This document shows positions 6,001 through 9,000 of a DNA stretch of 13,230 nucleotides, piece by piece (positions within the stretch are counted from its first letter, which is position 1; each line of letters begins with the position of its first letter). The stretch lies in IMG/VR virus record IMGVR_UViG_2563366990_000013, one strand, 5' to 3'. Source of the stretch: a virus. Lineage: Duplodnaviria > Heunggongvirae > Uroviricota > Caudoviricetes. Position numbers: made by a program.

Positions 6001-9000
6001 AGTAACCCCGTACGACGCAGTACCCCTTTGACCAGGGCAACAACACGCTCCCATGCCGCCACGAATTTATTCGGCTGTTTCTCCGCCATATGTGCCAGAA
6101 ATTCACCCGCCTGTACTTCCGGTGATTCCTTACCATAGGACGCATCAACCTTACGCCAGGCTTCACGGATGGTGGCGTTATCACTGTCGCGGGTTTTCAG
6201 CACGGTTTTGATAATCGTCTGATATTCCGCTGGCGTGACAACATGCTCCATGGCATGGTGGATAATCTCGTGACGCAGCTTCTCGCGTACGGTCCGCCCG
6301 TCAGGGATGTTATCCGCCACCAGGACTATTTCTCGTTTATCCGGACGATAGAATGCGTGCACCCTGCCGTAACCATCGAACGATTCGCCCGCCAGCGCTT
6401 CAGCCTCTTTCTGTGACTTCACCACACGGACCTTCAGGTCACTGTCCTTAATGCCGCTCATCACGCCACGGGCAACCGCTTCAACCTGCGGGACCGGGCT
6501 GCCTTTGGCTTCCGCCGCACTACGGTTAACATCCGAAATGAGATTGCCTTCAGGTGTGCGGGTTACGCCCTTACGGGAATAAAACGCAACGCCCTTGTCC
6601 GTCTCACGGGTTTTCAGCGTACTGAACAGGTGATCGAATGCATCACGAATACCGCCATCCAGTTCCGCATTCGTCGGATAAGCCCAGGTGTTATCTGTGT
6701 TGTGCTCAGGTGCCTTACGGATATTGACCAGATAATCATTCTCCACGCCAGCCATACGCGCCTTATCCTGAACATAACGCTCAAAGGCACGCGCCGCCAT
6801 TTCAACATCCGTTGACCAGTACGGTTTTGAGCGCACCTCATCAAGAAGCGCTGAACGACGCGGCATGTCACTGTTTTTAATGGCCTGAATCACACCTTTA
6901 AAAGCGTCGTAAACCTCCTGACGTACCGGATATTCAGCATCAACATACCTGCCGTCTTTAAATATGCGCCTGACACGCTGTGCTTCCGTCATAAAGTCGC
7001 CACCTGACGTAATTTTCCCGTCATTGGAAACGTCATAACGACCAAAATAATTATCCAGAGAATGGAACCATTCGTGCGCCAGCGCACCCGGTCCGTTACC
7101 TTTTGTCAGGTTGATTGCCACCTCACCCGGCTCATAGTGTGCCGCCGCCTTACCCTTACCACGGGCACCAAATGCCAGGCCAAGACGACCGTTCAGGGAA
7201 AGCGCTTTTGTCGGTACATTCAGTACTTCCGCAAGGTCATGCAGCGAGTCATAAGCCCGGTTCAAATCAGCCTGACGACGCGGACCTTCCACGTAGTTAC
7301 CAAACTGCACACCACGGAAACCAAACGCATCACTGAACTGCTCCGGTGAAACATCCCCTTTACGGCGTTCTGGTCCGGTACGGTCGCGGTTGGTGGCGTT
7401 ACGCTGCTCCTCACGCGAAATCTCCCGCATATCCTTCACATGACGAACAAGCTCATCACGATGTGAATCAATGTACTTACGCGCATCACTGGCTGACTTA
7501 AAGCCACCTCTCACCCGCATTTTGTTTTTACCGTAAGCGATAAAAATATCGCCACTGCGGGTATTCCGGTAAACGTCAAAGCGGATTTTGTCATCCGGTG
7601 ACGGTGCTGTTTTTTCATCACCTTTCGCCTGTGATTTTTCCTCCTGCTCTGCAAACCAGACTTTCGCCTTTGCCAGTAATTCATCCCTGCTTTCCGAGAA
7701 AAAGAGGTTACTCCCCTTATTGTCCTTATTGCGCAGTGAATAAAGTTTCTGTGGCGGATCGTAACGCTTCCCTCCTGCCGCCTGATACACACCCGATACC
7801 ACCCGATAAGCAGAAGCCCTGTCCATCTGTGAGGGTGGCAGAGTGCGTAACAGTTGCCAGGTATCCGCGTAACGGGAGGGCATTCTGCCTTCCATCCATT
7901 CTGCGAGGCGTTTCGCGCTGACCGTTCCGTTCAGCATTTCCGATACACTGTGTCGTACTTTTTTTACGCTCTCCCCCCAGCCTGCCGTATTGTGTTTCGT
8001 CTTCGCCGGAATATCGCTACGATACAGCGCTATCATTGCCAGAGTGTCAGCATCGGCACCTTCGTTCGCCAGTTTTGCGTAGTCCGGTTTCGGGAACAGT
8101 TTGCTCAGCGGCTGCGTGGCATAATCCCTGTCTTCCAGCGTTTTACCCAGTGTTTCAGCAAGCTGTGCATAACGGTGTTTGGCTGCCCCTTTAATTTCCT
8201 CGCCAAAGTCTTCAATTTTTTTGCCCCTGACTTCACCTCCGCGCACGGTAGATTCCCTGTCAGTAAAGACAGTTGTTTCAGATTCAGGTGCGATTGTCTC
8301 AGGCTGCGGGATGTCACGATTTCCTCCGGCCTGTCGGCGTACTTCTGCCTGCTGTGCGAGCTCAGGCAGTGAGTCCCGTACAGTGCGGGGAAGTGATTCA
8401 GGCTGAGGCATACGAACATTACGCGCAATGTCAGGAGCCGGTAGCCCTTCACGTACCGGTGCTGTCGCGTTCTGCGCATCCGGTGACGGCAGACCACGAC
8501 GAACTATTTCACCCTCGAGTGTTTCCCCCTGGCGACCAGCGGCGTTTTCCGGTGCCGGAGCACGTCCTTTCTGGAAACTCTGGCCCTTAACCTCACCGGT
8601 TGTGGTAAAACGACCACCACGTCCGGCCTGATTCTCATCCGGCGTACGCGCCACCTCTCCCGGTAACGGATATCCCTGTCCGGGATGAATATCGCCGGGG
8701 GCGGGCAGACGCGGACGCTCAGTTAACTCCTGTGCTGTCGGACCGGCATCACCCTCAGCCATCTGTGAACGTACAAGCTCCTCCGCCATCGGCGCGTTGC
8801 CACGGGCAAGGCGGGCCTGTACCTCCGTATCATCCCCCGTGAAACCACGGAATCGCGGGTCACGCATGAACGCGGGCTGCTCCATCGGGTCAGCATCAGC
8901 AATACGCTCTCCGTCAGCCAGGGTGTTAATGGTTTCCGTTGCCACATCTTCAGAGAACGCAGGATTATCCATTTCAACGGCATACTGATTCTCGCCTTTC

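Follow-up and report, generated by a model that had tools for sequence, protein, structure and literature searches.

The short-tailed phages that spread Shiga toxin (Stx) genes among Escherichia coli and Shigella carry a giant and poorly annotated virion protein, their largest, and the question raised by the locus described here is what a metalloprotease-like motif, HEIIHHAMEH, does within it. The locus lies in a 13,230-nucleotide stretch of DNA (the window; IMG/VR record IMGVR_UViG_2563366990_000013, Caudoviricetes), the source DNA of which is 91-99% identical to short-tailed Stx-converting phages of E. coli and Shigella. All coordinates below are those of the window, and all features lie on its minus strand. 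An open reading frame (ORF) of 2,795 amino acids (2535-10922) encodes a polyvalent virion protein orthologous to gp47 of phage phi24B; existing annotation calls this protein only 'LPD5 domain-containing' or 'hypothetical'. The ORF is a genuine gene, given its full-length match to phrog_616 (unknown function, PHROGs) and the detection of the motif peptide in phi24B virions. As judged from sequence and a structural model, HEIIHHAMEH marks a conserved gluzincin (thermolysin-type) metalloprotease-like domain of this protein. Our overall reading, to which we give a probability of about 0.6, is that of a gluzincin domain in an ejected polyvalent protein, with limited self-proteolysis at the linkers between modules as its favoured role.

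The motif is encoded at 6243-6272 (residues 1551-1560), where the predicted metal ligands H1551 and H1555 occupy 6270-6272 and 6258-6260, the predicted catalytic base E1552 occupies 6267-6269, and the variable H1556 occupies 6255-6257. A sequence-only reading of the window had reported the motif at these coordinates, in the context RVHAFYRPDKREIVLVADNIPDGRTVREKLRHEIIHHAMEH, and both are found upon translation of the ORF; the strand, however, needed correction, since the plus strand reads MLHGMVDNLV across the same nucleotides. That reading had also placed the motif about 265 residues downstream of a first, dissimilar signature; the order is correct, but the spacing is 268 residues, the first motif (HEWFH) beginning at residue 1283. 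HExxH is a short pattern, which speaks for a chance occurrence in such a long protein. However, histidine accounts for only 39 of the 2,795 residues (1.4%), and composition predicts 0.04 HExxH per protein against the two seen. Among 5,000 composition-preserving shuffles, at least one HExxH appeared in 3.7%, HExxHxxxEH in 0.02%, and two HExxH in none. Over 1,000 relatives also keep the motif, which is situated in a zincin fold, and chance is thus excluded as its origin.

The zincin-like metallopeptidase domain around the motif, the second in the protein (hereafter DOM2), extends over about 210 residues (5883-6506, residues ~1473-1680) between the LPD1 and MuF_C domains. Searches of Pfam, NCBIfam and PDB sequences with the single sequence of residues 1440-1760 returned noise only, the best matches being Peptidase_M76 (E-value 0.2), Hvo_1808 (0.0085) and one de novo design; a DOM2 profile likewise found only EF-hand and designed-helix noise among PDB sequences. 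Word-indexed homologue searches, even with a profile, were dominated by near-identical E. coli contig fragments, and an exhaustive HMMER search of representative proteins with a three-sequence DOM2 profile was used instead. It detected relatives in 1,015 representative proteins at E<=1e-3 (247 at E<=1e-10), nearly always within phage or plasmid proteins of 1,000-6,000 residues and sometimes as tandem copies. The DOM2 sequence of the window, 100% identical to that of Escherichia phage GER2, belongs to the first of three settings: about 186 Stx-type phage records at >=95% identity; about 106 Vibrio phages, in which it lies within a 2,800-residue protein at ~32% identity; and 36 mostly conjugative or mobilizable plasmids of Pseudomonas, Xanthomonas and Burkholderia, in which a zeta-toxin domain is its fusion partner.

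Conservation was counted over 153 homologues below 60% identity. Within the motif, H1551 is kept in 95% (Glu otherwise), E1552 in 99% and H1555 in 97%, and further downstream Y1596 in 93%, E1607 in 100%, A1610 in 92% and E1614 in 86%. The family consensus is R-H-E-h-h-x-H-[HY]-G-L, that is, HExxxH, and the conserved signature as a whole reads HExx(x)H … Y … (E)E-x-x-A-x-x-A-E; the two positions after the motif histidines are Gly (90%) and Leu (86%) in the family, and A1557 and M1558 in the window. The HExxH spacing of the Stx-phage clade results from a one-residue deletion inside the motif, the position of the gap being fixed by the flanking register (…V-V-T-P-A-E-Y versus …V-I-G-D-V-E-Y). The sequence-only reading had taken the compact HExxH-x3-EH as the functional layout. 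The motif indeed does not vary freely among homologues at H1551, E1552 and H1555 (95-99%), but E1559 and H1560 do vary (GLAS, GLKA, AMEN and others are found there, with H, N, Q, K, S or A at the position of H1560), and H1556 is variable. The compact layout is therefore an accident of one clade, and the invariant glutamate is the distant E1607. We note that the clade with the deletion (6255-6272) also lacks the first Glu of a family EE doublet (6102-6107): the site reads AGEF in the window and ANEF or AHEF in near relatives, versus AEE in 85% of the family. The ArdC glutamate equivalent to this first Glu orients the second His, and the joint loss of a motif residue and this Glu may represent compensatory remodelling of the site.

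We then turned to the predicted fold, obtained with AlphaFold2 on a 36-sequence DOM2 alignment. The model (predicted template modelling score, pTM, 0.73) has a confidently folded core at 6081-6515 (residues 1470-1614), with a predicted local distance difference test (pLDDT) of 87-98 across it. An N-terminal helix is followed by a strand, a helix, two strands, the long helix carrying HEIIHH, two inserted helices, and a helix with E1607 and E1614; the zincin core, an N-terminal helix and a three-stranded sheet ahead of the active-site helix, is thus present, in line with the zincin-like fold anticipated from the sequence. HEIIH(H) itself lies on a predicted helix of residues 1542-1561. In fold comparisons the model scored 7.5-8.2 with the N-domains of Certhrax and anthrax lethal factor (144-159 residues aligned), 6.0-7.3 with small zincin-like proteins, minigluzincins and YbeY, 6.4-6.7 with M32 and M13 peptidases and PPEP-2/3, 6.5 with the SprT domain of Spartan, 6.2 with MATCAP, 5.7 with Wss1 and 5.6 with ArdC. 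The best Foldseek matches in the PDB, MATCAP (E-value 0.06) and lethal factor (0.09), are not significant individually, and 14 viral models in BFVD matched at E<=1e-3, nearly all of them pieces of large phage polyvalent or structural proteins.

Where would a metal be held in this fold? A predicted 'glutamate helix', PEVQAGEFLAHMAE (6081-6122, residues 1601-1614), is supported by both the model and conservation, and E1607-F-L-A1610 on it (E1607 at 6102-6104) agrees with the signature published for glutamate helices, (E,H)xx(A,F,T,S,G) (PMC7213743), which makes E1607 the predicted third ligand of the metal. ArdC binds its metal through H201, H205 and E229, the last preceded by E228 (PMC7213743), and the DOM2 family likewise has an EE doublet at the third-ligand site. 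The active enzymes MATCAP/TMCP and DPP III pair HExxxH with an 'EE(G)' motif that supplies the third ligand (PMC10499314). From the glutamate-helix fit and these parallels we infer a metal held by H1551, H1555 and E1607, with E1552 acting as general base; Y1596 (6135-6137) is a possible transition-state-stabilizing tyrosine. In a second, N-terminally extended AlphaFold2 model the active-site helix breaks directly after HH, where the family has its conserved Gly, which fits the bend postulated for HEXXXH versions by Iyer et al. (PMC5512222).

These features place DOM2 among known enzymes of mobile elements. LPD5 (residues 1050-1199), LPD1 (residues 1360-1439), MuF_C (5388-5672, residues 1751-1845) and LPD38 (residues 2478-2683), all recognized by Pfam, occur together in the ORF, which by this domain content is therefore a 'polyvalent protein' as Iyer et al. 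2017 use the term (PMC5512222). The metallopeptidases (MPTases) described in that work have the same four neighbours in large multi-domain proteins, the same core (N-terminal helix, three strands, HExxH helix and Glu helix, with variable inserts between), an HExxxH motif in one set as in the DOM2 family, sometimes more than one MPTase per polypeptide, and occurrence in proteins of both phages and conjugative elements; the Stx-phage clade differs in its one-residue deletion, which restores HExxH spacing. DOM2 thus joins the known zincin MPTases of polyvalent proteins as a new member that databases do not yet model, and probably falls, by the form of its motif only, within the HEXXXH set, one of the 12 clades of Iyer et al.

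A metal site of the compact type known from SprT/Wss1 or ArdC proteins, to which the sequence-only reading had likened the motif, is contradicted by the conservation pattern and very improbable. Besides the lack of conservation of E1559 and H1560, the latter stands at +5 rather than at the +6 of HExxHx5H. SprT/Spartan and Wss1 (WLM) use this third His, whereas DOM2 has an invariant distant Glu and an unconserved downstream His. The profile searches suggested for these families gave no match of DOM2 to Pfam SprT-like or WLM, and PF18818 (MPTase-PolyVal) matched neither DOM2 of the window at E<=10 nor any of 36 family members at E<=1, while the positive control, R388 ArdC, matched it with an E-value of 1.2e-48. 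An hhalign comparison of the DOM2 alignment with ArdC produced no relevant alignment, and Pfam did not find the ArdC-N ssDNA-binding domain in the 2,795-residue protein. ArdC (R388, PDB 6SNA) itself uses a distant Glu (PMC7213743), but 24 residues past the motif, in contrast to ~50 residues and two inserted helices in DOM2. Other zincins also show differences. The anthrax lethal factor-like group (ATLF, M34; N-domains of lethal factor and Certhrax, PPEP-2/3) shows 7-14% identity to DOM2 and no profile match, and its best-scoring members are inactive domains, whereas in the DOM2 family the catalytic residues are all retained. The HExxxH gluzincins MATCAP/TMCP (tubulin carboxypeptidases) and DPP III (M49) show no significant sequence relationship to DOM2; they are eukaryotic cytoskeletal enzymes with unrelated accessory structure, and the copy in the window, unlike them, has HExxH spacing.

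DOM2 is physically present in phage particles. The orthologue gp47 of phi24B (2,811 residues) is abundant in virions, cannot be seen in the cryo-electron microscopy map and has been proposed to be an encapsidated ejection protein (doi 10.64898/2026.04.10.717836). In the mass spectrometry supplement of that preprint, the exact motif peptide HEIIHHAMEHVVTPAEYQTIIK has 34 peptide-spectrum matches in phi24B virions and the peptide LRHEIIHHAMEH... (LRHEII...) has 31 (doi 10.64898/2026.04.10.717836); the motif is therefore translated and part of the particle. The same supplement lists oxidation (+15.99) on the Met and the first three His of the motif peptide, and not on the fourth His; as a footprint of a metal site, the oxidation of these three (positions 1, 5 and 6) was rejected, because an unrelated His peptide is oxidized too. 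The preprint applies the term 'metallopeptidase domain' to MuF-C and builds on it an idea of peptidoglycan degradation (doi 10.64898/2026.04.10.717836), whereas MuF-C is a BECR-fold (PBECR) RNase-like domain according to Iyer et al. (PMC5512222). The sole structural paper on the protein thus puts the peptidase in the wrong domain and missed DOM2.

The borders of DOM2 offer a view of what it may cleave. A YSR tripeptide lies at the LPD1/DOM2 border (context GVAFYSRKG; 6573-6581, residues 1448-1450), at the DOM2/MuF_C border (context SSQYSRSGKPDPFK; 5877-5885, residues 1680-1682), and at the border of MuF_C and the C-terminal module of ~900 residues (context GAYYSRTSS; 5271-5279, residues 1882-1884). 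Among relatives, this junction motif, with the consensus (I/V/A)-(L/x)-[F>Y]-S-[K/R/Q] and a Ser kept in at least 90% of the sequences of a diverse alignment, is found 10-15 residues ahead of DOM2 in 79 of 117 (68%; background 7%) and 20-35 residues past its last helix in 66 of 119 (55%; background 8%). Across 133 giant relatives it is over-represented 1.73-fold (475 instances versus 275 ± 13.5), with control patterns at 0.83-1.23-fold, and the excess approximates the number of instances flanking DOM2. A Vibrio phage giant protein has the motif on both sides of DOM2, and a plasmid zeta-toxin fusion of 504 residues has the variant SQFRLE between DOM2 and its only passenger. No flanking junction motif is described by Iyer et al. 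2017 (PMC5512222). Module exchange also falls exactly at a junction, since a mosaic breakpoint among Stx phages is located at ~5857 (residues ~1689-1690), directly after SQYSRSGKPDPFK: most Stx phages are ~98% identical to the window upstream of it, and have another N-terminal variant of MuF_C downstream (KVPEGEGERY... versus KADAYDAKQF... in the window). In the close Salmonella relatives P0012 and P0036, an extra module of ~300 residues, a phosphoribosyltransferase by its NCBI name, lies between the LPD1-terminal AFYSRE motif and DOM2, a further case of insertion at the junction.

Polyvalent MPTases have been proposed to autoprocess polyvalent proteins or, alternatively, to attack host proteins (Iyer et al., PMC5512222). 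In our favoured reading, that of limited self-proteolysis, Stx phages would package the giant protein in the capsid and eject it into the host; H1551, H1555 and E1607 would hold a divalent metal and E1552 would activate water; and DOM2 would cleave its own protein at linkers bearing phi-[FY]-S-[RKQ] on both of its flanks, probably after ejection and not in the virion, thereby freeing or activating the neighbouring MuF_C/PBECR RNase-like and C-terminal LPD38 modules. The pattern of junctions fits a self-excising polyprotein protease, and the motif may be a cleavage or recognition site, the evidence for both being correlative. That DOM2 recognizes the motif at fixed distances on both flanks and, after ejection, excises itself and cuts the protein into separate effector modules is a narrower proposal that we consider rather unlikely to hold in full. 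If true, phage and plasmid polyvalent proteins would have their first defined 'cleavage code', and the same conserved junctions would double as recombination points for module swaps.

Several observations constrain the self-proteolysis reading. In the phi24B gel-slice data, given as counts per protein per slice, slices 1-4 contain 2188, 1686, 1187 and 1260 gp47 spectra, with the peak in the top slice and all four slices above the 80-kDa portal (doi 10.64898/2026.04.10.717836). The protein is thus largely intact in virions, so that any processing within the particle would be partial at most; it would more likely follow ejection. Trypsin cleaves after the R or K of the junction motif, so the existing mass spectrometry data are uninformative on native cleavage there. 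Furthermore, in the N-terminally extended AlphaFold2 model the upstream junction is a local hairpin (pLDDT ~70) followed by a disordered linker, and the motif is not docked on DOM2. No capsid-protein cleavage is seen in phi24B (doi 10.64898/2026.04.10.717836), so there is no sign of a prohead protease that might otherwise process gp47.

The intactness of gp47 in virions would suit an active protease that is injected as an effector and acts on a defence system, an envelope protein or a regulatory protein of the host. This alternative, already raised for polyvalent MPTases (PMC5512222), also draws on the toxin proteases among the nearest solved folds (anthrax lethal factor, PPEPs) and on the small two-domain zeta-toxin fusions of conjugative plasmids, but it leaves the position-specific [FY]S[RKQ] on both flanks of DOM2 unexplained and no candidate host target is known; we consider it possible though not probable, and it and self-processing are not mutually exclusive. 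It is improbable that DOM2 is a scaffold or binding module derived from a zincin and devoid of catalysis, as the PA-binding N-domain of anthrax lethal factor is: zincin derivatives that have lost activity do not retain the HExxH and Glu residues, whereas H, E, H and E are 95-100% kept in more than 150 homologues at 25-40% identity, tandem copies included. Digestion of peptidoglycan peptide stems, allowing the ejection conduit to cross the cell wall, would suit a protein ejected through the envelope and was proposed in the phi24B preprint, there for the 'metallopeptidase domain' of gp47; for DOM2 we regard it as quite improbable.

DOM2 is accompanied by another zincin-like domain, confirming that two different metalloprotease-like signatures are present in one multi-enzyme protein, as the sequence-only reading had argued. 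The first domain (6846-7340, residues 1195-1359) contains HEWFH (7062-7076) with an Asp three positions further on; this form, HEWFHSLD, fits the 'phage-type' clade of Iyer et al., which has an Asp at that distance from the motif (PMC5512222). Together with LPD1 (6606-7340, residues 1195-1439) it matches NCBIfam CLCA_X over residues 1181-1436 (E-value 1e-43), under the curated cut-off, and LPD1 may be its C-terminal part and not a separate domain. Neither of the two domains matches PF18818. When compared with each other by hhalign, they gave a non-significant E-value of 0.3, with only strand 2, strand 3 and the HExxH helix aligned; the two look unrelated, and the comparison does not demonstrate their common ancestry within zincins.

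The remainder of the ORF and its surroundings can be described briefly. The C-terminal module of ~900 residues (2535-5270, residues 1885-2795) comprises LPD38 and hydrophobic stretches such as IALAAVGAGYLLGSL; it matches a PHROG annotated 'DarB-like antirestriction' (E-value 1e-26) and also occurs in giant proteins of Vibrio phages, where it begins directly after the junction motif. Between the N-terminal module and LPD5 lies a long, probably disordered region rich in Pro, Glu, Ala and Gln (~8220-9600, residues ~440-900) with repeated 'GLPxPD' and 'PQPE'-like elements. Among the neighbours, an ORF of 83 residues (12281-12532) is named 'bacteriocin' in phage P13374, and its homologue was dismissed as a contaminant by the phi24B authors; an ORF of 414 residues (931-2175) has a tail-adhesin-like C-terminal region (PHROG tail/adhesin matches).

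While the domain class is known from polyvalent proteins (PMC5512222), this member has no database model, and its flanking junction motif is not described in that work. For the Stx phages, two zincin domains are now located in the largest virion protein, the second with a named, predicted catalytic set (H1551, E1552, H1555 and E1607) available for point mutants, which would address either the processing of the ejected protein or its targets. The DOM2 family, which numbers over 1,000 representative clusters from phages and conjugative plasmids, lacks a Pfam or NCBIfam model, and a profile made from it would improve the annotation of many giant proteins of mobile elements. With the flanking [FY]S[RKQ] motif, the long-standing idea of 'autoprocessing' of such proteins becomes a specific and testable hypothesis on where cleavage would occur.

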